The translations under genes were made by a program, and so were the position numbers. A stretch of DNA of 64,000 nt. It comes from an uncultured Gemmatimonas sp. GTDB lineage: Bacteria > Gemmatimonadota > Gemmatimonadetes > Gemmatimonadales > GWC2-71-9. A model generated the notes under the pieces. It did no database searches. It was not told the DNA's origin and saw only the letters and a program-made list of their open reading frames with translations. The stretch lies in assembly GCA_964535105.1 (NCBI GenBank), contig CAZHSO010000003.1:14173-78172 (forward strand), written 5' to 3'. This document shows, one piece after another, positions 2,826 through 58,094 of the stretch; positions within the stretch are counted from its first letter, which is position 1, and each line of letters starts with the position of its first letter.

Positions 2826-2892
2826 GGTGAGCGGTAAGCGGTAAGCGGTGAGCGGGTCCAACCCGCTTACCGCTCACTGCTCACTGCTCACC
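2826..2892 (+). repeat. Stacked tandem-heptamer hairpin (GTRAGCG x4 / CGCTYAC x4)
   Basis: ggtgagcggtaagcggtaagcggtgagcgggt - cca - acccgcttaccgctcactgctcactgctcacc. It fills the 77-nt accD-folC spacer, starting 3 nt after the accD stop. The arms are reverse complements apart from 5 transitions. Confidence 0.9.
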
Positions 2893-13333: not shown

Positions 13334-14256
13334 TGCAGGAGACCGTCTACCGCTCCGAGCAGCCGCCGTTCACCTGGATCGACGTGACGGCCCCGACACC
13401 CGCCGAGCTGCAGGAGCTGGCTGCCCGGCACGGACTCCCGGCCACCGCGGTCGAGGACTGCCTCGATCCGGAGCACCTCCCGAAGTATGAGCGGTTCAGT
13501 GACTCGATCTTCCTGATCCTCCGGGTGTTCGACGCGGCCGCCCCGGAGTCCGCCGGCACGGTTCAGGAGCTCACCCGCAAGATCGCGCTCTTCCTCCGTG
13601 GCGATGTCGGTCTCACCGTGCACCGGGTGGATCTTCCCGCGATCGCCGCGGTGCGGGAGCGATTCAGCGGACCGGCGGCGGAGGAGAGCACCGGGACCGG
13701 GCTGCTGTCGGCTCTCGTCAAGGCCACCCTCGATACCTACGACAAGCCGCTGCAGCAGGCCGAGGACGACATCGACGCGTTCGAGGAGGGATTGTTCCGG
13801 CCCGACCTGCCGGCCCCGCCGCTCGACCGGGTCCACGTGCTCAAGCGGCGGGTGAGCCTGATCAAACGCATACTCTGGCAGACGCAGACCGTGATCGTCA
13901 GGATGACGCCGGCGGGGGAGCGGATGCTGCCGTTGTACCAGGACCTCAAGGAAAACACCGAGAGCTATCACTTCTGGGCCGATCAGCTCCAGGAGGATCT
14001 GAACAACCTCCTGAGCATACACGTCACCATGGCCTCGCACCGCACCAACGAGGTGATGCGGGTGCTGACGGTCTTCTCGGCGTTCTTCCTCCCCCTCACG
14101 TTCATCGTCGGCGTGTACGGGATGAACTTCGAGCACATGCCGGAGCTGGGAAAGCGGTGGGGATATCCGGCCGTAATTGCACTCATAGCAGCTGTCTGTC
14201 TCGTGATCTTCATCTGGTTCCGCCGGCGCGGATGGCTCGGCCGGGGACGTTCATGA
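13333..14256 (+). CDS. corA: CorA-family divalent cation (Mg/Co/Ni) transporter
   Basis: YGMNF (GMN) motif followed by two C-terminal TM helices. The ATG at 13333 shares 1 nt with the larB stop (TGATG). Confidence 0.9.
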   Translation: MQETVYRSEQPPFTWIDVTAPTPAELQELAARHGLPATAVEDCLDPEHLPKYERFSDSIFLILRVFDAAAPESAGTVQELTRKIALFLRGDVGLTVHRVDLPAIAAVRERFSGPAAEESTGTGLLSALVKATLDTYDKPLQQAEDDIDAFEEGLFRPDLPAPPLDRVHVLKRRVSLIKRILWQTQTVIVRMTPAGERMLPLYQDLKENTESYHFWADQLQEDLNNLLSIHVTMASHRTNEVMRVLTVFSAFFLPLTFIVGVYGMNFEHMPELGKRWGYPAVIALIAAVCLVIFIWFRRRGWLGRGRS

Positions 14257-15647
14257 GCTCGCTCATCTGGCTCGCGGCGGGGCTTGCTGCCGGAGCTATT
14301 GCCGGCTCGCTCATTAGCCGGGGGCGGCGGCCGAAACGTTCTGGGACGGCGCCCCAGCCCACGGCAGAAGGTCCTCCACTGCTGGAGTGGATTCTCCGGT
14401 CCAACGGCGCCATGGGGGCCTGGATGGTCGGCCCCGGCACGCGTGAGGTGGCAGTGCCCACCGGGGGCCTCTCCGACGACGTGGACCGTGTGGTCCGGGC
14501 GAGGCTGGAGCATCAGCGGGTGGGTGACGGGCAGGGCGTCGAGCGGCTGGGCTCGGGGACGCTCGTGTTCGCCAGCCTCGAGGGGCGTGCGGCGGGACTG
14601 CACCTCCCCGCCGACAGCTCTCCCCAGGCAACGGCGACGGCCCAGCGCGACCTCGCCCGGCTGCTGGACTATGACCGGTGGCGACCCGTCCTGGCCGACG
14701 TGGCCAAGGAGCAGGACACTCCCGGCGAGTCGGTGGAAAGTGTAGCGCTCCGTCTTGCGCATCAGTTGGAGCGGCTCCTCGGCGTCGAAACCTGCGTGGC
14801 GCTCGCCGACACCGCCGGCGTTCGCATCACCGGCGTCTCCCTGCGGACCGACCGCCGCCTTCTGCGCACCATTGTCGCCGAAGGGAGCGTGCTGGAGCAG
14901 GCAGCCCTCGGTCGCGCGGGCTCGATCGCCGGGGTAGTGGCGCCGTTCGGCGACGTCCTCTCCAGCCGCCGGCAGCGGCGCGACCCCGCCTTCGTCTGTC
15001 CTGTTCCTGGGGACAAAGTCCCGCTTGGCGCCGTCGCGGTGTGGACGACGGGTGGCGCGGAGCCGGTGGGCCCGCTGCTCGCGGCATTCCGAAGCGCGGT
15101 GGAGACGGCAGGTCCGCGCCTCCTCGCCGCGCAGGAGCGGCGGGCGCTCAATGATGCCGCCATTCGCGATCCGCTCACCGGGCTCCGAAACGGTCGCGGG
15201 CTCGGCGAGGTGATGTCTTCGATCAGCATGGCGACCGGTGCGCTGGTGTACGCCGACCTCGACGACTTCAAGCAGCTCAACGACGCATTGGGGCATCCGG
15301 CCGGCGACGCGGCGCTGGTGCATGTGTCCCGTCTGCTGATTCAGGCAGTGCGTGACAACGACACTGTCGCGAGGCACGGCGGCGAGGAATTCGCAATCTG
15401 GCTTCCGGGGGCGACACTGGAACGGGGCCGGCAGGTTGCCGAGCGGATCCGGCAGGCGCCCGCCTGGAGCGAGTGGAAGTGGCAGGGTGAGAAGCGGCCG
15501 CTGCGCGCGTCGTTCGGCGTGGCGGCGTGCCCCGATACCAGCGCCACCAAGGCGGGCCTGCCGGCCCAGGCCGACGCCGCGCTCTATGAAGCGAAGCGGG
15601 CGGGGCGCGATCGGGTGGTGGTGTTTGAGGAGGCAAGGAGGCAATGA
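14253..15647 (+). CDS. Membrane-anchored diguanylate cyclase (GGDEF domain)
   Basis: N-terminal TM helix (LIWLAAGLAAGAIAGSLI). C-terminal GGDEF domain with an intact GGEEF and an RxxD I-site (RDND) five residues upstream. ATGA overlap with corA. The last codons and the stop lie inside repeat array 15631-15670. Confidence 0.85.
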   Translation: MSSLIWLAAGLAAGAIAGSLISRGRRPKRSGTAPQPTAEGPPLLEWILRSNGAMGAWMVGPGTREVAVPTGGLSDDVDRVVRARLEHQRVGDGQGVERLGSGTLVFASLEGRAAGLHLPADSSPQATATAQRDLARLLDYDRWRPVLADVAKEQDTPGESVESVALRLAHQLERLLGVETCVALADTAGVRITGVSLRTDRRLLRTIVAEGSVLEQAALGRAGSIAGVVAPFGDVLSSRRQRRDPAFVCPVPGDKVPLGAVAVWTTGGAEPVGPLLAAFRSAVETAGPRLLAAQERRALNDAAIRDPLTGLRNGRGLGEVMSSISMATGALVYADLDDFKQLNDALGHPAGDAALVHVSRLLIQAVRDNDTVARHGGEEFAIWLPGATLERGRQVAERIRQAPAWSEWKWQGEKRPLRASFGVAACPDTSATKAGLPAQADAALYEAKRAGRDRVVVFEEARRQ

Positions 15648-15670
15648 GGCAAAGAGGCAAAGAGGCGAAA
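15631..15670 (+). repeat. Single-arm tandem 8-mer array (AGGCAANG x5)
   Basis: aggcaagg aggcaatg aggcaaag aggcaaag aggcgaaa. There is no complementary arm nearby. It contains the stop of the GGDEF gene and SD-like GAGGAGG/AAGGAGG strings, and ends 22 nt upstream of the dipeptidase ATG. Confidence 0.85.
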
Positions 15671-15691: not shown

Positions 15692-17002
15692 ATGACCCGG
15701 TGGTTTCGTTTGCTGTGCGCTACCCTCGGCTTGCTGGCCGGGCCCCTCAGGGCGCAGGAAGATCCGGCGCTGCTCGCGCGGGCCCGTGCCATCCACGATC
15801 GGGTGATGACCCTCGACACCCACGTGGACATCAACCCGTCCAATTTCACCGCCGAGCGGAACTACACCCAGCGGCTGCAGATCCAGGTCAACCTCCCGAA
15901 GATGGTGGACGGGGGGCTCGATGCCGTGTTCCTCATCGTCTACGTCGGGCAGCGGAACGACTTCACTCCGGAGGGCTACGCCCGGGCCCACGCCGCGGCG
16001 GTCGAGAAGTTCGAGGCGATCCACCGGCTGACGGAGCAGATCGCTCCCGACCGCATCGGGCTCGCCCTGACCGCCGCCGACGCCAGGAGCATCCACGCCA
16101 GCGGGAAGAAAGTGGCGCTGATCGGCATCGAGAACGGCTATCCAATCGGCACGGATCTAACCAACCTGAAGAAGTTCTACGACCTGGGTGGCCGGTACAT
16201 GTCGCTGGCCCACAACGGACACAGCCAGCTCTCCGATTCCAACACGGGCGAGAGGGACGGGGTGTGGCTTCACAACGGCCTCTCACCCCTCGGCCGCCAG
16301 GTCATCTCCGAGATGAACCGGCTCGGCATCATGGTGGACATCTCTCACCCGTCGAAGCAGTCGATGATGCAGACGCTGGTGCTCACCAGCGCGCCGATAA
16401 TCGCCTCGCACTCCGGGGTACGCGCCATCTGCAATCACTCGCGGAACCTCGACGACGAGCAGCTCCTCGGCCTCAAGAAGAACGGCGGGGTGGCCCAGCT
16501 CGTGGCTTTCGACAGTTATGTGAAGTGCGGACAAGAGTCTTCGGAGCGTCAGCAAGCCCAGGCGGCGCTGTTGCAGAAGTACGGCGTCACCGGTGCGGGG
16601 CGCGTCCAGGGCCTCCCGGATTCGGTGCGCGCCGCCTTCCAGCTGGACATGCAGGCGCTCAACCAGCAATACCCGCCGCCGCCCCGCGCCACGGTGAAGG
16701 ACTTCGCCAATCACATCGATTACGCCGTGAAGCTGATTGGCGTCGATCATGTGGGTGTCAGCTCGGACTTCGATGGCGGCGGCGGCGTGGAAGGGTGGAG
16801 CGACGCGAGCGAGACTTTCAATGTGACGCTCGAGCTGGTGCGGCGCGGCTACACCGAGGAGCAGATCGGGAAGCTGTGGAGCGGGAATCTCCTGCGGGTC
16901 ATGGAGCGCGTGGAAGCGGTCGCGAAGGGGCTGGGGAGCAAGAGAGCTAGGGAGCTAGGGAGTGCGGCCGTTCCCAAGCTCCCTAACCCCCTAGCTCCCT
17001 AG
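15692..17002 (+). CDS. Secreted membrane dipeptidase, peptidase family M19
   Basis: Signal peptide MTRWFRLLCATLGLLAGPLRAQ. M19 motifs LDTHVDI, SLAHNGHSQLSD, VDISHPS and ASHSG. The last ~22 codons and the TAG stop are encoded by hairpin 16934-17008. Confidence 0.85.
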   Translation: MTRWFRLLCATLGLLAGPLRAQEDPALLARARAIHDRVMTLDTHVDINPSNFTAERNYTQRLQIQVNLPKMVDGGLDAVFLIVYVGQRNDFTPEGYARAHAAAVEKFEAIHRLTEQIAPDRIGLALTAADARSIHASGKKVALIGIENGYPIGTDLTNLKKFYDLGGRYMSLAHNGHSQLSDSNTGERDGVWLHNGLSPLGRQVISEMNRLGIMVDISHPSKQSMMQTLVLTSAPIIASHSGVRAICNHSRNLDDEQLLGLKKNGGVAQLVAFDSYVKCGQESSERQQAQAALLQKYGVTGAGRVQGLPDSVRAAFQLDMQALNQQYPPPPRATVKDFANHIDYAVKLIGVDHVGVSSDFDGGGGVEGWSDASETFNVTLELVRRGYTEEQIGKLWSGNLLRVMERVEAVAKGLGSKRARELGSAAVPKLPNPLAP

Positions 17003-17008
17003 TTCCCT
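16934..17008 (+). repeat. Stacked tandem-octamer hairpin (GGGAGCTA-like x4 / TAGCTCCC-like x4)
   Basis: gggagcaa gagagcta gggagcta gggagtgc - ggccgttccc - aagctccc taaccccc tagctccc tagttccc. It spans the stop codon of the dipeptidase gene. Confidence 0.85.
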
Positions 17009-17289
17009 GTTTTCAGGATGGTCTCCTCCCGGAGCTTCATGTCTCGCCGCTGGCTATTCCGCCGCGCCCACCGGCTCTGTCACCCGTGCTGGTCCACCTT
17101 TCCAAGCTCCATGAGGCGCCGCACCAGGCGCACCTCATCGGGAGGGTCTGGGTCACGGTGGCGCTCAGGCAGACCAGAAGGAGGCCTCGGCTGGGGAGTA
17201 GCATGATCGTCACTTATGAAGGTAACAGTGAGAGAGGAGGCGAGATGTGAAGGTGTATTCTACTGTAATTCAAGAGGTTGGCGAGTACC

Positions 17290-17348
17290 AGAGGCAAGGA
17301 GGCAAGGAGGCGAAGTGAGAACCCGTTGCCTCTTTGCCTCTTTGCCTC
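17290..17348 (+). repeat. Stacked tandem-octamer hairpin (AGGCRAGG x3 / CTTTGCCT x3)
   Basis: The 25-position stem has 21 Watson-Crick pairs, 3 G.U pairs and 1 mismatch when folded as + strand RNA. It ends 38 nt upstream of the tmRNA 5' end. Confidence 0.9.
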
Positions 17349-17385
17349 AATCCTCCGTCCCATTATCATTCCCCGAGTTCCAGAA

Positions 17386-17749
17386 GGGGGCGACTGGCTT
17401 CGACGGGTCAGTAGAAGGTGTGGCAGCGTGCCCAGGTCCAGGTCCCTGGTAAAACCGCTTGGAAACGTTCAAATGCCAATTCTGATTTGGCGCTGGCTGC
17501 CTAAGCTGAGCTAGTCTCGCTCTAGGCACCTTCGGCGACGGAGCCCGTCCGGGGCGTCGGCGTCGAATACGCAAAACCGGGCTGGCCTGCTGTGGTCCTC
17601 CGACGCGGCAGGCGAGATTCTTCGGAGGTTCGTTCCGGGAAGGTTGGCCGATGACCGGCTCGGGACCACGCGAAGACACCGGCCTACGCACGTAGACGCT
17701 GCGCTGAAAGCTGGTTCGGACCAGGGTTCGATTCCCTGCGCCTCCACTA
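17386..17749 (+). ncRNA. ssrA: tmRNA (SsrA)
   Basis: 5' GGGGGCGACTGGCTTCGACGGG. The acceptor stem 17386-17392 pairs with 17739-17745 and includes the G3.U identity pair. T-arm reads GGTTCGATTCC. Tag reading frame 17475-17504 is GCC AAT TCT GAT TTG GCG CTG GCT GCC TAA, giving ANSDLALAA. After discriminator A17746 the genome reads CTA rather than CCA. Confidence 0.93.
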
Positions 17750-17757
17750 TCCAGGGA

Positions 17758-17816
17758 GTAGCGAAGAGCGAGTAGCGAGGAGGGGAACGTCCTCTTCGCT
17801 CTTCGCTCTTCGCTAT
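17758..17816 (+). repeat. Stacked tandem-heptamer hairpin (AGCGARG x3 / CTTCGCT x3)
   Basis: The 24-position stem has 21 Watson-Crick pairs, 2 G.U pairs and 1 mismatch on the + strand. It starts about 10 nt after the tmRNA 3' end. Confidence 0.9.
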
Positions 17817-51516: not shown

Positions 51517-52703
51517 TCTGGACCGTCGTCCTCCTCGGCCTGCTGCTGACGGTATTCGGCGCGACCACCGCCGCGGCCCTCATTACTTCGAGCCGAAGCC
51601 GGCTCGCCGAGGTCGTGGCGCGACGGCTTCGAGGGGGCAAGGATTCACTGGCCTGGCTCGCACCACTCGAGCGAGACCTCGCCGCGGCGTCGGTCACGAC
51701 GACGCTCGGGATTGCGATGCTCGGCGCGGTCTTCCCCGGTATTTTCGCCGGCGCGACGCTCCCGCGGCTCCTCCTTCTCCTGATCCTCCTGGCAATTCCC
51801 GCCGTGCTGTTGAGCGGCTACGTGCTCCCGCGCTTTCTCACCTACCGCCGCGCCGCGAGGGTCGCCGAGCATTGCCGCCCGATCCTGCGTCCCTGGGCCG
51901 CCGTGCTCGCTGGTATTCTCCCCGCGTCGAGGGTCCGCCCCGAGACGCTCATCACCGAGCTCTGGCGGGAGCGGGCGCGAAGCGGCGTTGCGCCGGACGA
52001 CGAGCTGCTCCGGGTCGGCGGGGTCATCAGCTTCTCCCAGCGCACAGTGCGCAGCGTCATGACACCGCGGACCGATCTCATCGCGCTTCCCGAGGAAGCA
52101 TCGGTCGAAGAGGTGCGTGCGGCGTTCGTCCAGAGCGGGTACACCCGCCTCCCGGTGTATCGCGGCACCATCGATGAAATGGTGGGCATGGTCCACGCCT
52201 TCGATCTCTTCCGTCTGGCCGCCGGCGATCCCCTCCCGGTCCGGCCGCTGGCGGTGGCGCCCGCGAGTCGGAGCTGCGGGGACGTGCTGCTCGACATGCA
52301 GCGGGAGCGGCGGCATCTCGCGATCGTCCTCGATGAGTTCGGCGGAACCCTCGGGATCGTGACGCTGGAAGATCTGCTCGAAGCGATGGTGGGAGAAATC
52401 GTGGACGAGGACGAGCCCGTCCGTGGCCCCACCGCAACCAATCCCGATCTCGTCGAGCTGGAGGGCGCCGTCCCGGTATCCGAGCTGGAGGAGCGTTTCG
52501 GGGTGAGCATGCCCGAGGGACAGGCGACGACCGTGGGCGGCCGTCTCGCCGAGCTGGCCGGGCGCTTTCCCGCGGCGGGGGAACGTTTCCTGATCCGCGG
52601 GCTCGAGTTCGATGTGCTCCAGGCTACCCGCACCCGGATCGAGCGCCTCCTCGTGCGGCGCGGCTCGCCCGCCTCCGTCCCGCTGGACCGGAGCGAGGCA
52701 TGA
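51513..52703 (+). CDS. Second CNNM/CorC-family protein (tandem paralogue)
   Basis: Same architecture as the preceding gene (TM region, VMTPRTDL CBS pair, CorC_HlyC). 4-nt overlaps on both sides. Confidence 0.85.
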   Translation: MIWTVVLLGLLLTVFGATTAAALITSSRSRLAEVVARRLRGGKDSLAWLAPLERDLAAASVTTTLGIAMLGAVFPGIFAGATLPRLLLLLILLAIPAVLLSGYVLPRFLTYRRAARVAEHCRPILRPWAAVLAGILPASRVRPETLITELWRERARSGVAPDDELLRVGGVISFSQRTVRSVMTPRTDLIALPEEASVEEVRAAFVQSGYTRLPVYRGTIDEMVGMVHAFDLFRLAAGDPLPVRPLAVAPASRSCGDVLLDMQRERRHLAIVLDEFGGTLGIVTLEDLLEAMVGEIVDEDEPVRGPTATNPDLVELEGAVPVSELEERFGVSMPEGQATTVGGRLAELAGRFPAAGERFLIRGLEFDVLQATRTRIERLLVRRGSPASVPLDRSEA

Positions 52704-54043
52704 TCAAGAAGCCGCTGGCGCCGGCCAGGATGCTCGGGCTGCTGCGCGAGGGAAACGTGAGCGAGTTCTTCGCGCGGGCCCGGATGCTCGAGCCGGCGGA
52801 TCTCGCCGATGTGCTGGCCCTGGCGGATGAGGACGAGCGGGTCGAGATCGCCAAGCTGTTGCCGCCCGATCTCACCGGCGAGGCGCTGGTCGCGATGCCG
52901 GACGTGGAGCACGCGGAGGATACCCTCGCGGCGCTGACCACTGAACAGGCGGCCGAGATCGTCGGGGAGATGCCCGACGACGATGCGGCCGACATCCTCG
53001 GCGAGCTGGAGCCGGAGCAGCAGCAGCGGATCCTCTCGGCGGTAGAGCCGGAGGAGCGCCGCACCGTCGAGCGACTGCTCGAGTACGACGAAGAATCTGC
53101 CGGCGGCCTGATGACCGGGGCGATGGTCACCGTGAATGAAGACGAAACGGTGCGCGACGCCCTCGAGAACATCCGGAAGCAGGCCGAAGACGTCGAAGAG
53201 TTTGCCGAAGTGTACGTGCTCGACCGAAATCGCAGGCTTCTCGGCATTCTGGGCTTCAAGCAGCTGGTCCTCGGGGCGCCCGACCGCCCGGTCCGTGAGT
53301 TGATGCAGGAGCCTGACGTGACGGTCGGGCCTGAAATGGATCAGGAAGAGGTCGCACGCCTGATGGCACGCTACAACGTGCCCAGCATTCCCGTCGTGGA
53401 CCGGGACGGTCGCTTGCTCGGCCGGATTACCTTCGACGACGTGTCCGACGTGGTCGAGATGGAAGCGACGGAAGACCTCCTGCGGTTCGGCGGTGTCTCC
53501 GCCACCGAGGACCTCGGCGCCCGCTGGTTCGAGGCGGTGAAGACCCGGCTCCCCTGGCTGCTCGTCAACCTCGTCACCGCCTTCGCCGCTGGAGGGGTCG
53601 TCGCCTATTTTCAGTCGAACCTCAGCCGTTTCATCGCGCTCACGGTGTGGATGCCGGTCATCGCTGGCATGGGCGGCAACACCGGTACCCAGGCCCTTGC
53701 GGTCACCGTACGGCGCCTGGCCCTGGGGCTGATCTCGCGCGACGATTTTCGCCGAGTTATCACGAAGGAAGTTCTCGTTGGCGTGACGAACGGGCTCGCC
53801 ATCGGCGCGGTGGCGACCGTCGTCGCCCTCCTCACCGGCATGTCGGCGATGTTCGGGCTGCTCGTGTTTCTCGCCATGACCGGGAACCTCTTCGTCGCGG
53901 GTCTTGCCGGCGCCGCGATCCCGCTCCTCCTCAAGCGGTTCAACATCGATCCCGCCATCGCGTCGTCCATTTTCGTGACCGCCTTCACCGATGTCTGCGG
54001 GTTTGCGCTGCTCCTTGGGCTGGGGGGGCTTCTTCTGTTATAA
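52700..54043 (+). CDS. mgtE: Magnesium transporter MgtE
   Basis: MgtE N-domain, CBS pair and a C-terminal 5-TM domain with GMGGNTGTQ. Confidence 0.93.
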   Translation: MIKKPLAPARMLGLLREGNVSEFFARARMLEPADLADVLALADEDERVEIAKLLPPDLTGEALVAMPDVEHAEDTLAALTTEQAAEIVGEMPDDDAADILGELEPEQQQRILSAVEPEERRTVERLLEYDEESAGGLMTGAMVTVNEDETVRDALENIRKQAEDVEEFAEVYVLDRNRRLLGILGFKQLVLGAPDRPVRELMQEPDVTVGPEMDQEEVARLMARYNVPSIPVVDRDGRLLGRITFDDVSDVVEMEATEDLLRFGGVSATEDLGARWFEAVKTRLPWLLVNLVTAFAAGGVVAYFQSNLSRFIALTVWMPVIAGMGGNTGTQALAVTVRRLALGLISRDDFRRVITKEVLVGVTNGLAIGAVATVVALLTGMSAMFGLLVFLAMTGNLFVAGLAGAAIPLLLKRFNIDPAIASSIFVTAFTDVCGFALLLGLGGLLLL

Positions 54044-54044
54044 G

Positions 54045-54107
54045 ACACAAGGACGCAAGGACGCAAAGTGAACCACCTTGCGTCTTTGCGTCTTTGCGTC
54101 TTTGCGC
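54045..54107 (+). repeat. Stacked tandem-octamer hairpin (ACRCAARG x3 / CTTTGCGT x4)
   Basis: acacaagg acgcaagg acgcaaag - tgaaccac - cttgcgt ctttgcgt ctttgcgt ctttgcgc. It starts 1 nt after the mgtE stop and ends 13 nt before the meaB ATG. The unequal unit number allows alternative pairing registers. Confidence 0.9.
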
Positions 54108-54120
54108 CTTACCTTTCAGC

Positions 54121-55194
54121 ATGGATCTCGACACGCTCATCGCCGACCTCGCCGCGGGCCGGACTGCCGCGTTGGCGCGCGCGATTTCCGTCGTGGAAAA
54201 CGGGCGGCCGGGCTTCGAGCAGCTCCTCGCCGCGGTGCATCCGCGCCTCGGCCAGGCGCACCGGGTCGGCATCACCGGCCCGCCCGGCGCGGGGAAGTCG
54301 ACCCTCACCCGGCAGCTGGTCCAGGCCTGGCGCGAGCGGGGATACACCGTGGCCGTCGTGGCCGTCGATCCCACCAGCCCCTTCTCGGGAGGCGCGCTGC
54401 TCGGCGACCGGATCCGCATGGAATCGGTCGCGATGGATCGCGGCGTTTATATCCGGTCGATGGCGACGCGAGGCTCGCTCGGCGGTCTCGCCACCACCAC
54501 CCGCGAGGTATGCGACGTCCTCGATGCGGGGGGATTTCAGCGCATCCTGATCGAGACCGTGGGCGTGGGGCAATCGGAGCTCGCGGTCACCGGAATGGCC
54601 GATTCCACCGTGCTTCTGTTGGTCCCCGAATCGGGCGACGCCATTCAGACCCTCAAGTCGGGTGTGATGGAAGCGGCGGACCTGTACGTCGTCAACAAGG
54701 CGGACCGCCCCGGCGCGGACCAGCTCGCGCGCGAGATCGAGGTGACCCTCGGCATCCGAATGGGCAATGCGTTCCGGGGGATGAAGGTGCACCACGGTGT
54801 GGACCCGCAGGGCGCGGCGCACGGGAAGGAGGCAAGGAGGCAAGGAGGAAAAGAGGCATCGGGGCAAGACCCCGTTGCCGCTCCGGCCTGGGAGCATCCG
54901 GTGCTCCTTACCTCCGCGGTGAAGGGCGAAGGCACCGAGGCGCTGGTCGAGGCGCTCGAGCAGCACTACCGCTGGATGCAGGAGACCGGCGAGCTCGCCG
55001 CGCGCCGGACCAAGCGGCTCGCCGCGCGCACGCGCGAAGTGGTGGACCGGTCGGTCCATTGGTGGATCTGGCAGGAGACCCGCGCCGAGGAGCTCCTGCG
55101 CGAGCGCCTCGACGACCTCGCTGCCGGGCGAATCAGTCCCTACGAGCTCGCATCTGACATCGTGGCCGGTTTGAAGGAAGGAGCGCGGGTATGA
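54121..55194 (+). CDS. meaB: Methylmalonyl-CoA mutase-associated G-protein chaperone MeaB/ArgK
   Basis: Walker [10 protein letters not shown] and G4 motif NKAD, followed directly by the mutase gene. It contains an in-frame repeat-derived insertion between G4 and the TSA (G5) motif. Confidence 0.9.
54823..54885 (+). repeat. AGGCAAGG-family repeat element embedded in frame inside meaB
   Basis: gggaagg aggcaagg aggcaagg aggaaaag aggcatcg gggcaagaccccgttgccgctcc. The units are those of 17290-17348, and its agaccccgttgcc matches the agaacccgttgcc loop flank there in 12 of 13 positions. The second arm is degenerate. Confidence 0.8.
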
Positions 55195-56858
55195 GTGCAC
55201 GCGACGCGGAGCTCGAGCGGCTGCGGGCCGAGGTGGCGGCGTGGCGGGCAGCATACGGAAAGTTGCCGCTGCGCCGGGACGTCGAATTCAGCAGCGTCTC
55301 CGGGCGCCCGGTCGAGCCGGTGTACACCCCAATCGACCTCGCAGGCACGCTCGGGGATCCCGGCGAGCTGCCGGGAATCTGGCCCTTCACGCGTGGGATT
55401 CATCCCACGATGTTCCGCGGAAAATTGTGGACGATGCGGCAGTTCGCCGGCTTCGGCACGGCGGAGGACACCAATCGGCGCTACAAGTTTCTGCTGGAGC
55501 GCGGGCAGACGGGCTTGTCCGTGGCGTTCGATTTCCCCACGCTGATGGGATACGACTCCGACCATCCGCGCTCCGAGGGCGAGGTGGGCAAGTGCGGCGT
55601 CGCGATTTCCAGCCTGGCCGACATGGAGACGCTCTTCGACGGGATTCCGCTCGACCGTGTCTCCACCTCCATGACGATCAACGGTCCCGCGGCGATCCTG
55701 TTCTGTTTTTACGTGGCGGCGGCCGAGCGGCAGGGGGTGGATATCCGGAAGCTTCAGGGGACGGTGCAGAACGATATCCTCAAGGAGTACATGGCGCAGC
55801 ACGCGTGGGTCTATCCGCCAGAGCCCGCGCTCAAGATCATCGTGGACATGTTCGAGTGGGCGGCGGAGCACACTCCGCAGTGGAACACGATTTCGATCTC
55901 CGGGTATCACATCCGTGAGGCGGGAGCCACCGCGACCCAGGAGCTGGCGTTCACGCTCGCCAACGGCTTTACCTACATCGAGCGCGGCGTCGCGCGCGGC
56001 CTGGCGGTCGACACCTTTGCGCCGCGCCTCTCGTTCTTCTGGGACGTGCATAACGATTTCTTCGAGGAGATCGCCAAGATGCGCGCCGCCCGCAGGATCT
56101 GGGCGCGCCATCTCCGCGAGCGCTACGGGGCGCGGGACGAGCGCAGCTGGAAAATGCGGTTCCACTGCCAGACCGCCGGGGTCACCCTCACCGCCCAGCA
56201 GCCGATGAACAACATCGTCCGGGTCGCGTACCAGGCGCTGGCGGCCGTGCTGGGGGGAACCCAGTCGCTGCACACCAACGCGCTCGACGAGACGCTTGCC
56301 CTCCCCACCGAGGAATCGGTGCGCATCGCGCTTCGCACGCAGCAGATCCTGGCCGCGGAAACCGGCGTCCCCAACACCGCCGATCCGCTGGGCGGATCCT
56401 ATTACGTCGAAGCGCTCACCGACCAGATGGAGCGCGAGGCCGAAGCGCTCTTCGCGGACATCGAGGCGCAGGGGGGCGTTGTCCCCGCGATCGAGTCGGG
56501 GTGGTTCCAGCGCCAGATCGCCCAGAGTGCCGCGCGCTTCCAGTCGGAGCTCGAGAGCGGGCGGCGCGTCATCGTCGGCGTGAACGATTTCGTCGAAGAG
56601 GAGACTGCCCCGCCGGAGATCCTCCGCATCGGCGATGACGCCGACCGGGTACAGCGCGGCCGCATGGCGCGACTCCGCGCCGAACGGGACGGAACCCGGG
56701 TGGAAGCGGCCCTCGCCGTGCTCCACGCGGCCGCCGTTGCCGACCGCAATGTGATTCCCGGGATGATGGATTGCGCCCGCGCCTTTTGCACCCTGTTCGA
56801 GATTCGCGAGGTGCTCGAGCGGGTGTACGGCGCCTACCGCGAGCCGGTCTTTTTCTAG
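55191..56858 (+). CDS. Methylmalonyl-CoA mutase family, large (substrate-binding TIM barrel) subunit
   Basis: [59 protein letters not shown] is typical of split acyl-CoA mutases. ATGA overlap with meaB. Confidence 0.9.
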
Positions 56859-56867
56859 GAGCGGCCG

Positions 56868-58031
56868 ATGGCATCGCGTGCGCTGACCGAGATCCGGCGC
56901 CAGCTCCAGCGGCTGGTGCGGCTGCCTGCGGGCAAACACTGGATCGTGAGCTGTTACCTCAAGCTGGAGCCGCGCGATCGCTCGCGGGGGAAGTACCTGA
57001 TCAAGCTCAAGAATCGCGTCCGCGAGGTGATCGAGGCGCTTCCCGCGGAAGGCCTCGACCGCCAGGAGACAGAGCAGGTGATCGGTGATCTGCACAAGCT
57101 TCAGGTGATGCTGCAGCGGCCTGACGCGCTGCCGCCGACGCAGGGGCTGGCCGTCTTCGTCTCCAAACCACTCGGCCTCTTCGAGATCATTCCGCTCCCG
57201 CGGGTGCATCGCTCCCGTCTGCTGGTGGACCGGACAGCGCTGGTGCGGGAGCTCGCCGCGCTCGAGGATGAAGTGGGCCGTCTCCTGCTCGCGGAAGTGG
57301 ACAAGAGCGGGGCGACGATTTACGAAGTCACGGCGTTCGAAGCGAAGAAAATCGCCGACATCGAAGCCACCGCCCGGAAAGGCGGCCGCTTCCACAGCGA
57401 CCGGCACGAGGCGCCAGGCAAAGGGGAGCACGGGTTCCATAACCGGCTCCGGCATGAGCGGGACCAGCTCTTCGACGCCGTCGCCGCGCGGCTCTTCGAC
57501 CTGGACCGCCGGGAGCCCGTCCGGGGGATCGTGCTCGCCTCGGCGGGCAACGAGGCCGATTCGCTCCGGATGTTTCTCCACCCGTACATCGCCGGCAAGG
57601 TCGTCGGCACCGCGCGGATGGCGCGACGGAAGGCGTCGATCGCCGATGTGCACGCGACCGCGCTCGAAGTCCGGGAGACGTTCGAGCGGAAGCTGGAGCG
57701 GCACCTGGTCGCCGAAATGCTCCTGGGGCAGGGCTCCGGCTGGGCCGTGAATGGCATCGGGGCCACGCTCGATGCGCTCGCCAAGGGGCAGGTGCGCACG
57801 CTGCTCGTGCGCGCCGATGCGAGCGTGCCGGGCTTCCGCTGCGGTGCGACCGGGAAGCTCACGCTCAATGCCCGGGATTGCCGGAGCCTCGGAGAGGCAA
57901 TCCCGGTTCCCGATGTGATCGATGATTCGATAGAGGAAGCGCTGCGCCAGCGGATCGACCTCGACGTGGTCTTCGAGCCCGATGCGGCGGAGACGATCAA
58001 CGGCGTGGCGGCGTTGCTCCGGTTTAGATAG
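56868..58031 (+). CDS. Bacterial eRF1/Pelota-superfamily (baeRF-like) protein
   Basis: 387 aa. N-terminal [10 protein letters not shown] block. The central segment [12 protein letters not shown]...[16 protein letters not shown] aligns by eye with the eRF1 segment [25 protein letters not shown], giving GGR in place of GGQ. The C-terminus [10 protein letters not shown] is like eRF1 domain 3. GGAG sits 7 nt upstream of the ATG. Confidence 0.7.
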
Positions 58032-58094
58032 CGAAGAGCGAAGAGCGAAGTGCGAAGAGGTGGTTCCGCTTCGCTCCTCGCTCTTCGCTCCTCC
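58030..58094 (+). repeat. Stacked tandem-heptamer hairpin (AGCGAAG x4 / CGCTYCT-type x4)
   Basis: agcgaag agcgaag agcgaag tgcgaag agg - tggttc - cgcttcg ctcctcg ctcttcg ctcctcc. It overlaps the TAG stop of the eRF1-like gene. The unit is the same as in hairpin 17758-17816. Confidence 0.9.

Follow-up and report, generated by a model that had tools for sequence, protein, structure and literature searches.

Rickettsia palindromic elements (RPEs), originally reported by Ogata et al., are one of several described repeat systems that can be compared with the subject of this study, a tract of 8-nucleotide (nt) tandem repeats in the meaB gene of an uncultured Gemmatimonas sp. The gene is located in a 64,000-nt stretch of contig CAZHSO010000003.1 (assembly GCA_964535105.1, positions 14,173 to 78,172 of the forward strand), which is referred to below as the window. 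RPEs are in-frame insertions in protein-coding genes (PMC10969869). The meaB tract resembles them in that it belongs to an otherwise intergenic family, lies in frame in a housekeeping gene and is translated as an extra peptide that is compatible with the fold; however, RPEs are around 100 to 150 bp long and have a conserved family sequence and peptide, whereas the sequences described here are short 8-nt arrays, which differ between loci. In contrast to RPEs, the copy in the window is not palindromic and neither terminal repeats nor target duplications were seen. RPEs furthermore hit many genes in one genome, while here one loop of one protein is occupied in many lineages.

The amino-acid tandem repeats (aaTRs) of Borgs are nucleotide-level tandem repeats that create disordered regions, and all of their units within open reading frames (ORFs) are divisible by three (PMC9879509). 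The meaB tract likewise is a nucleotide-level repeat, which lies in frame, encodes disorder-promoting residues and evolves fast; however, its unit of 8 nt is not divisible by three, and many meaB relatives carry the inverted complement and thus a hairpin, which Borg repeats do not. The short tandemly repeated repetitive (STRR) heptamers of cyanobacteria are long simple-sequence repeats of the 5- to 11-nt class. The TAACTGA heptamers of Beggiatoaceae are intergenic direct repeats with one fixed unit and few copies in ORFs (PMC4679880). Both share with the sequences studied here the short tandem units of 7 to 8 nt, which are abundant between genes and found in few instances at gene ends or in ORFs. 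They use one fixed unit genome-wide in direct repeats located mostly upstream of start codons, whereas the units described here vary by locus and are typically accompanied by an inverted tandem arm right after stop codons. Repetitive extragenic palindromic (REP) sequences and bacterial interspersed mosaic elements (BIMEs) are palindromes mobilized by REP-associated tyrosine transposases (RAYTs) (PMC2817692). Like REPs, the intergenic hairpins described here are abundant, are placed behind genes and probably exert their effect as RNA. A conserved sequence, a 5' GTAG-type motif and a transposase characterize REPs, whereas no conserved sequence was seen here and a RAYT gene was not searched for; in addition, REPs are extragenic by definition, unlike the meaB tract. 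Judged by these comparisons, none of RPEs, Borg aaTRs, TAACTGA repeats and REPs appears to combine variable 7- to 8-nt units, inverted tandem arms and the recurrent occupation of a single loop. Literature searches on hairpins, tandem repeats and palindromes of Gemmatimonadetes or Gemmatimonas and on hepta- and octanucleotide repeats returned no description of these elements, a search on terminators in Gemmatimonadota found no paper naming the phylum, and the phylum is likewise absent from a survey of 118,019 genomes for inverted repeats.

The octamer tract of meaB and its relatives in the window

The meaB gene of the window probably carries a one-armed, translated copy of the GAGGCAAG repeat family, which is located in a disordered and hypervariable loop of the protein, stems from a genus-level ancestor and has no function of its own. 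The features of the gene that are relevant here are as follows:

54121..55194, + strand: meaB coding sequence (CDS), 357 amino acids (aa) plus stop codon, with the G1 motif GPPGAGKS at residues 53-60 and the G4 motif NKAD at residues 192-195 (translation)
54694..54705, + strand: G4 motif NKAD (N192-D195), of which N192, K193 and D195 are invariant in 61 homologues
54748..54798, + strand: conserved 17-aa segment without repeat, residues 210-226, kept in 120 related proteins and 160 loci
54799..54888, + strand: hypervariable loop, residues 227-256 (30 aa), seen in the length variation across 160 loci and in an AlphaFold2 (AF2) model
54826..54858, + strand: tandem 8-nt tract of 4.1 units, AAGGAGGC register of the GAGGCAAG family (Tandem Repeats Finder (TRF), pattern search, blastn)
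54860..54874, + strand: 5-bp mini stem-loop cgggg-caaga-ccccg, the sole local pairing in the loop, whose overall fold is not beyond that of shuffled sequences
54904..54918, + strand: codons L262-L263-T264-S265-A266, strand leading into G5, in which CTCCTTACCTCC is complementary to the tract at 11/12 positions

TRF assigns the tract a period of 8, 4.1 copies, 88% matches and a score of 52. Its 33 nt correspond to 11 aa in frame (K236-A246), and it ends 336 nt 5' of the meaB stop codon and thus lies inside the CDS and not after a stop codon or RNA gene. An initial annotation, made from the DNA letters alone, had placed a translated repeat element within the meaB reading frame, which is confirmed by TRF, blastn and translation. 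The 16-mer AGGCAAGGAGGCAAGG occurs 14 times in the window with up to three mismatches, compared to 0.68 expected occurrences, and none of 100 shuffles reached 14. When the loop was compared with the window by blastn, positions 54827-54858 matched 15628-15659 (30/32 nt, E 2e-8) and positions 54829-54848 matched 17291-17310 (20/20 nt); the unit family of the tract is present at three sites in 64 kb. What these sites have in common (20 to 32 nt) is the repeat unit only, without a unique element body, and a repeat search at the tract found no terminal repeats, no target-site duplication and no flanking inverted or direct repeats apart from the match to the LLTS codons. Two properties make the 8-nt unit tolerable within a reading frame: three units amount to 24 nt, in the course of which all three frames are passed through, and all frames of GAGGCAAG and of its complement are free of stop codons. 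An octamer tract encodes one cyclic 8-mer peptide in every phase, and the peptide encoded in meaB is rich in Gly, Lys, Glu, Arg and Ala.

Six hairpins built from comparable units were found in the window (2826-2892, 16926-17008, 17291-17348, 17756-17814, 54044-54110 and 58030-58093). They consist of 2.5 to 5 tandem purine-rich units of 7 or 8 nt, a short spacer and an inverted tandem array, and the purine-rich arm comes first on the + strand in all six. Three of them directly follow stop codons (2822, 54043 and 58031), the hairpin at 17756-17814 directly follows the transfer-messenger RNA (tmRNA) gene (17386-17749), and the one at 17291-17348 is located upstream of this gene. The meaB tract shares with this class the tandem purine-rich 7- to 8-nt units, but neither the second arm nor the position after a stop codon. 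The copies that matter most for the comparison are listed here with their folding free energy (dG) and the z-score of the fold (z):

15628..15666, + strand: one-armed GAGGCAAx array of 4.6 units (TRF), best match to the meaB tract (30/32, E 2e-8)
17291..17348, + strand: two-armed GAGGCAAG/CTTTGCCT hairpin upstream of the tmRNA gene (TRF), 20/20 to the meaB tract, dG -44.3, z -7.45
54044..54110, + strand: intergenic mgtE-meaB hairpin, (GACGCAAG)2.9 followed by (TTGCGTCT)4.1 (TRF), dG -40.9, z -7.3

The two hairpins were folded as 17285-17352 and 54040-54115. In the second arms of both (CTTTGCCT and TTGCGTCT), T replaces the C of the exact complement, which leads to one G.U wobble per unit; since this wobble is a mismatch in DNA and in the antisense transcript, pairing in the sense RNA is suggested. 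Judging from the ORFs, elements appear to be translated elsewhere in the window, too. The array at 15628-15666 covers six codons at the end of a GGDEF gene together with its stop codon (ORF 14157-15647, ending in EEARRQ) and continues into the spacer, and the ORF of an M19 membrane dipeptidase (15692-17002) reads through both arms of the 16926-17008 hairpin. The Pfam domain of the dipeptidase ends at residue 405 of 436, and its last 28 or so residues, with the tail AKGLGSKRARELGSAAVPKLPNPLAP, are encoded by the element. A scan of the whole window at the Rfam gathering threshold detected tmRNA only, and no family covers the tract or the hairpins.

The protein itself belongs to the MeaB/ArgK G3E GTPase family according to its profile, motifs, fold and the neighboring mutase gene. 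It matches the Pfam family MeaB (PF03308) with 293.6 bits at a cut-off of 23.1 (E 1.4e-87, profile positions 1-265 of 273) and solved MeaB, MMAA and ArgK structures of the PDB with E values from 1e-41 to 1e-54. The P-loop GPPGAGKS (GxxGxGKS) and NKAD (NKxD) are both invariant in 61 homologues. The 357-aa ORF contains neither a stop codon nor a frameshift, in agreement with the initial annotation, according to which the frame is preserved and the gene neither split nor pseudogenized. An AF2 model computed with the 61 homologues as input has a mean predicted local distance difference test score (pLDDT) of 80.9 and a predicted template modeling score (pTM) of 0.80, and Foldseek places the MeaB structures 2qm8, 4jyc and 4jyb, and also 8dpb, at the top (probability 1.00), with TM-scores, normalized to target length, of 0.71 to 0.77 for the first three. 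The closest genomes are metagenome-assembled genomes of uncultured Gemmatimonas and Gemmatimonadales, the best of which has 91% protein identity; a protein identical to the window MeaB is recorded in NCBI and Logan assemblies. The mgtE gene (52700-54043) is located directly 5' of meaB, and the gene for the large subunit of methylmalonyl-CoA mutase (55191-56858; MM_CoA_mutase, PF01642, E 4e-225) overlaps the meaB stop codon with its start. The gene 3' of the mutase gene (56868-58031) has weak matches to bacterial archaeo-eukaryotic release-factor-like families (baeRF_family10, E 9e-7), and its end coincides with the start of the 58030-58093 hairpin.

A hypervariable loop of MeaB in the Gemmatimonadales

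The tract lies between the G4 and G5 motifs of MeaB. With NKAD at 192-195, a tryptophan at 257 and TSA at 264-266, there are 68 residues between D195 and T264, the spacer length given in the initial annotation. The matching spacer, as derived from the alignments with solved structures, comprises around 34 residues in M. extorquens MeaB, 33 in M. tuberculosis Rv1496 and 21 in 6cum, and the excess over M. extorquens is thus around 34 residues. The element had been held responsible for 25 to 30 extra residues, which is not borne out by this accounting: around 20 of the 34 extra residues are an order-wide lengthening common to all 160 related loci and devoid of a repeat signature, and the 30-aa loop of the window contributes 11 to 14 further residues, 11 of which are the octamer tract. 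The segment 210-226 is part of this lengthening and is located within a stretch that has no counterpart in the alignments of M. extorquens, M. tuberculosis and 6cum; its residues R213, G215 and F218 are invariant, and H224, H225 and G226 are at least 90% conserved. The lengthening by around 20 residues is widespread (160/160 loci), whereas the 11-aa tract is limited to one clade and has a nucleotide-level repeat.

In the AF2 model, residues 221-252 have a pLDDT below 50 and no secondary structure is predicted for residues 214-260. The tract (residues 236-246) occupies the middle of this loop of low confidence, which connects the helix that follows G4 to the strand that precedes G5. The proposal that the element occupies a surface loop is supported by this model, though not by an experimental structure; model confidence and the extreme length variation together suggest that the site is exposed and tolerant. 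Of the variable linkers of the 160 loci, 91 have the baseline length of 15 to 19 aa; lengths between 13 and 63 aa occur overall, and one locus (L010; L numbers denote related loci) is essentially without a linker.

The loop-coding DNA was extracted from 160 related meaB loci, which amount to 813 kb in all, 801 kb of which are outside the loops. A fold with z of -3 or below was called a hairpin, and baseline loops have neither a tract nor a hairpin; this simple classification resulted in the following classes:

baseline loops: 83/160
one-armed tract without a significant hairpin, mostly of period 8 and including the window locus: 27/160
hairpin with a detected tract: 17/160
hairpin without a detected tract: 12/160
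other long loops: 21/160

Hence, 29 of the 160 loops fold as an in-frame hairpin, and a tandem tract was detected in 17 of these, with period 8 in 15 and period 9 in two loops and a dG as low as -115 kcal/mol. Three examples of complete hairpins with tandem 8-nt units in both arms are:

L137: (GGGCGGAC)n ... (GTCCGCCC)n, dG -93.2, z -7.8
L159: (GGGGCGCA)n ... (GCGCCCC)n, dG -115.1, z -10.9
L011: (AAGGCGGA)n ... (TACCGCC)n, dG -65.7, z -6.7

Similar loops are found in L120, L125, L019, L033, L018, L057, L123, L106, L046 and L144. Among loops of at least 30 aa, 24/48 reach a z of -3 or below, compared to 2/96 control segments of equal length from the same genes (Mann-Whitney p 6e-10). The density of tandem tracts with units of 7 to 9 nt is 4.0 per kb in the loops as opposed to 0.05 per kb in the 801 kb of flanks, an enrichment of around 80-fold. 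No 7- to 8-nt tract was convincingly located within another gene of the related loci; those outside the loops appear intergenic, and many of them are the hairpin just upstream of meaB, with the exception of a few 9-nt coding repeats. The latter, tandem tracts of the GGACGGGAA type, were observed in L035 (5806-5831), L045 (3479-3507), L103 (4298-4326) and L143 (4464-4483), in a + strand ORF downstream of the mutase gene, and possibly represent another repeat-bearing protein segment. The 44 loop tracts comprise 40 of period 8, four of period 9 and none of period 7, whereas the flanking intergenic tracts are mostly of period 7; the loops thus do not sample the intergenic elements at random. The bias for period 8 may reflect filtering by stop codons, shared descent or a mechanistic preference.

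Several hairpin loops differ by compensatory changes that extend over all units: L106 and L137 have GGCGGAC/GTCCGCC, L064 has GGCGGTC/GACCGCC, and an A-U to G-C switch distinguishes the loop hairpins of L046 and L159. In a distance tree, hairpin lineages with differing units are interspersed among short-loop lineages, which points to several gains or to rapid turnover in place. A hairpin that is ancestral and universal in this loop was rejected, as loops shorter than 20 aa have a mean z of -0.31 and 83/160 loops are baseline.

A second, unrelated palindrome, AAGGGTGTCACCCTGAG ... CTCAGGGTGACAAC (KGVTL...PQGDN), often with CCTGAGCGNAGCGAAGGGG, is found in frame in the same loop of 14 loci (L113, L115, L131, L134, L143, L056, L032, L027, L119, L122, L126, L128, L133 and L118). 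It adjoins an octamer tract in L118, L126, L128 and L133, and in L056 a 21-nt piece of it is expanded four times (PQGDNQS repeats). A search of the flanks for this palindrome (GTCACCCTGAGC...) gave 24 matches, which look like chance or ordinary coding sequence and around half of which fall into one conserved stretch of a downstream gene. Very long one-armed arrays in the same loop were observed in the proteins P0071, P0075, P0107, P0109 and P0066 and in locus L086 (GRKDGKTEGRKDGQTE..., up to around 56 aa in P0109); their peptides contain no complementary arm, which indicates that octamer arrays can expand within a CDS on their own.

Origin of the tract

Codon alignment of the window meaB with close relatives showed that the tract, gag gca agg agg caa gga ggc aag gag gca, is common to the window locus, L161, L162, L163, L164 and L081, degenerate in L082 and barely recognizable in L083. 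Its copy number is constant among the relatives that bear it; L162 has 3.75 perfect units, and the window copy has two substitutions in the last unit. L002 and L085, at a distance of 0.18 to 0.21 per nt outside the loop, have loops of 18 to 19 aa without the unit, and the origin of the tract is accordingly placed in a genus-level ancestor. The orthologue alignment therefore bears out the lineage specificity of the insertion, which is limited to the clade of the window locus. L001 (3001-4056) belongs to the same tight subclade (distance 0.04, around 4% difference outside the loop), and its loop is six codons shorter, Ala-rich and similar to that of the much more distant L084. Such a pattern points to allelic replacement or recombination within the loop alone; the lack of the tract in such a close relative shows that its loss or replacement can take place within a short time. 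A single gain of the tract, followed by its loss in L001, is the parsimonious account, with a tentative order of events.

The mgtE-meaB hairpin, around 0.7 kb upstream of the tract, is conserved in position in L001, L002, L081 to L085 and L161 to L164. Its unit is exactly GAGGCAAG in L001, L082, L163 and L085, and GACGCAAG or GGCGCAAG in the window locus, L002, L083, L084, L161, L162 and L164, so that a candidate donor with the unit of the tract is adjacent to it in this clade. Switches of the unit affect both arms together, and L084 has a mixture, which amounts to concerted evolution of the units across both arms. We infer that a GAGGCAAG hairpin at this upstream site, or a similar one, served as the template and that gene conversion or template switching carried the unit into the loop, where slippage would have followed. 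The tract would have been gained in the ancestor of the genus-level clade and would then have drifted by point substitution, with loss or replacement in the close relative L001; it would have lengthened a loop that was already tolerant of insertions. Identity of the unit and the neighboring donor favor such templated copying over purely local slippage.

Several points weigh against this account. No target-site duplication, terminal repeat or transposase was seen that would tie the tract to a mobile mechanism, and the tract may have originated by slippage in situ. The deep branches of the clade tree have bootstrap values of 25 to 49. It is most likely that the tract has no function of its own, which is an assumption of neutrality. 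Positions 54826-54850 contain three tandem AAGGAGG motifs, which resemble Shine-Dalgarno sequences within the CDS and could affect translation; since no ATG, GTG or TTG is located 5 to 13 nt 3' of any of them, internal initiation is unlikely. Moreover, the tract sequence GGAGGCAAGGAG (54828-54847) is complementary at 11/12 positions to CTCCTTACCTCC (54904-54915), 56 to 64 nt downstream, and the fold of 54818-54925 has a z of -2.86. In the relatives, the LLTS codons are ctc ctc acc tcc and pair at 10/12 positions, and the larger fold window 54800-54940 has a z of -0.88; pairing between the tract and the LLTS codons was rejected as a real structure on these grounds, and the complementarity is probably incidental.

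A purely local origin, by which slippage of purine-rich loop codons created the tract and its likeness to the intergenic units is compositional convergence, is unlikely. It could draw on the weak 8-nt periodic and G-rich proto-repeats of many baseline loops (L092, L008 and L040), on the very long one-armed (GRKDGKTE)n arrays of other clades and on the predominance of period 8 in loops (40/44, with none of period 7) as opposed to period 7 in most flanks. However, the tract matches two other sites in 64 kb with 20/20 and 30/32 nt, its unit equals that of the orthologous upstream hairpin in relatives, the neighboring clades have no proto-repeat of the GAGGCAAG unit, and slippage alone cannot produce the inverted arms of other lineages.

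Unlikely, too, is the view that a two-armed hairpin was inserted into the loop and that its second arm eroded because hairpins in a CDS are harmful, the explanation offered by the initial annotation. Two-armed in-frame hairpins do occur in the same loop of other lineages, and the 9-mer CCCGTTGCC, which is found twice only in the window, lies 3' of the tract at 54871 and at the start of the second arm of the 17291 element (17322). Nevertheless, three fold windows and an inverted-repeat search detected no second arm in the window loop: the loop DNA folds with -33.9 kcal/mol and a z of -0.3 compared to shuffles, 54815-54900 has a z of -1.18 and 54787-54876 of +0.49. The degenerate second arm is thus not confirmed; the stretch taken for it, gcc gct ccg gcc (AAPA), is shared by the repeat-free L001, and codon alignment revealed no second arm in the loops of L161 to L164, L081 and L082. 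CCCGTTGCC was rejected as a relic of a former arm, as the gtt codon behind it is specific to the window locus, whereas relatives have act, gct, ctc or cgc. The assumed selection against hairpins in coding sequences is contradicted by the 29/160 meaB loops that fold in frame with a z of -3 or below; many lineages have retained intact hairpins of -60 to -115 kcal/mol and show compensatory changes in them, so that hairpins are not strongly purged here. One-armed tracts are found outside coding sequence as well (15628-15666) and as long arrays in other loops, and a single arm need not mean decay. Taken as a whole, the observation of the initial annotation was partly confirmed, and its interpretation is partly supported.

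That the loop sequence is a functional RNA element, which tunes the expression of meaB and the mutase gene as a translation-dependent terminator or pause site and acts in the window locus via the AAGGAGG motifs or the LLTS pairing, is very unlikely. The excess of stable folds among long loops (24/48 versus 2/96), the co-variation of the arms (GGCGGAC/GTCCGCC versus GGCGGTC/GACCGCC), the G.U wobbles of the intergenic hairpins, which point to pairing in the sense-strand RNA, and the 11/12 complementarity to the LLTS codons would fit such a role. However, 83/160 loops are baseline loops without structure, loops shorter than 20 aa have a mean z of -0.31, the fold of the window loop is not significant, pairing with the LLTS codons is neither conserved in relatives nor retained in the larger window, and the co-variation could equally result from mechanistic homogenization of palindromes. 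Neither the tract nor the 54044-54110 hairpin gave a hit in a scan for consensus terminators (53800-55400). The possibilities that a repeat was misassembled into meaB or that the gene is decaying were rejected and are almost certainly wrong, as the intact ORF aligns end to end with homologues and has the identical C-terminus GARV, the identical protein is found in NCBI and Logan assemblies and the tract is present in six independent assemblies.

Consequences for MeaB and its loop

On its own, the tract of the window is a small insertion, probably neutral, by which the disordered loop of an intact gene has become longer. The wider pattern, a class of palindromic tandem repeats and its recurrent host in the MeaB loop, outweighs the 33-nt tract in interest. 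It is possible, albeit doubtful, that the Gemmatimonadales contain an undescribed class of self-complementary tandem repeats, for which the MeaB loop is a specific and recurrent host. If there is more to this than tolerance, the intragenic hairpin could act as a translation-dependent terminator or pause site that couples translation of meaB to expression of the mutase; alternatively, the elements could be made by structure-directed copying with a preferred target. In either case, the one-armed tract of the window would represent an early or abortive stage.

Proteins can take up repeats whose unit length is indivisible by three, RNA or DNA hairpins of extreme stability can survive within a conserved metabolic gene, and throughout a bacterial order one and the same protein loop can serve as a sink for such sequences. 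Where aligned MeaB proteins of this group differ in length, the difference is driven by repeats and should not be taken for a functional domain. One-armed tracts, complete hairpins and lost alleles form a natural series, in which the origin and homogenization of palindromic repeats can be studied, and which also bears on translation through very stable hairpins and on the seeding of new disordered protein segments by intergenic repeats.

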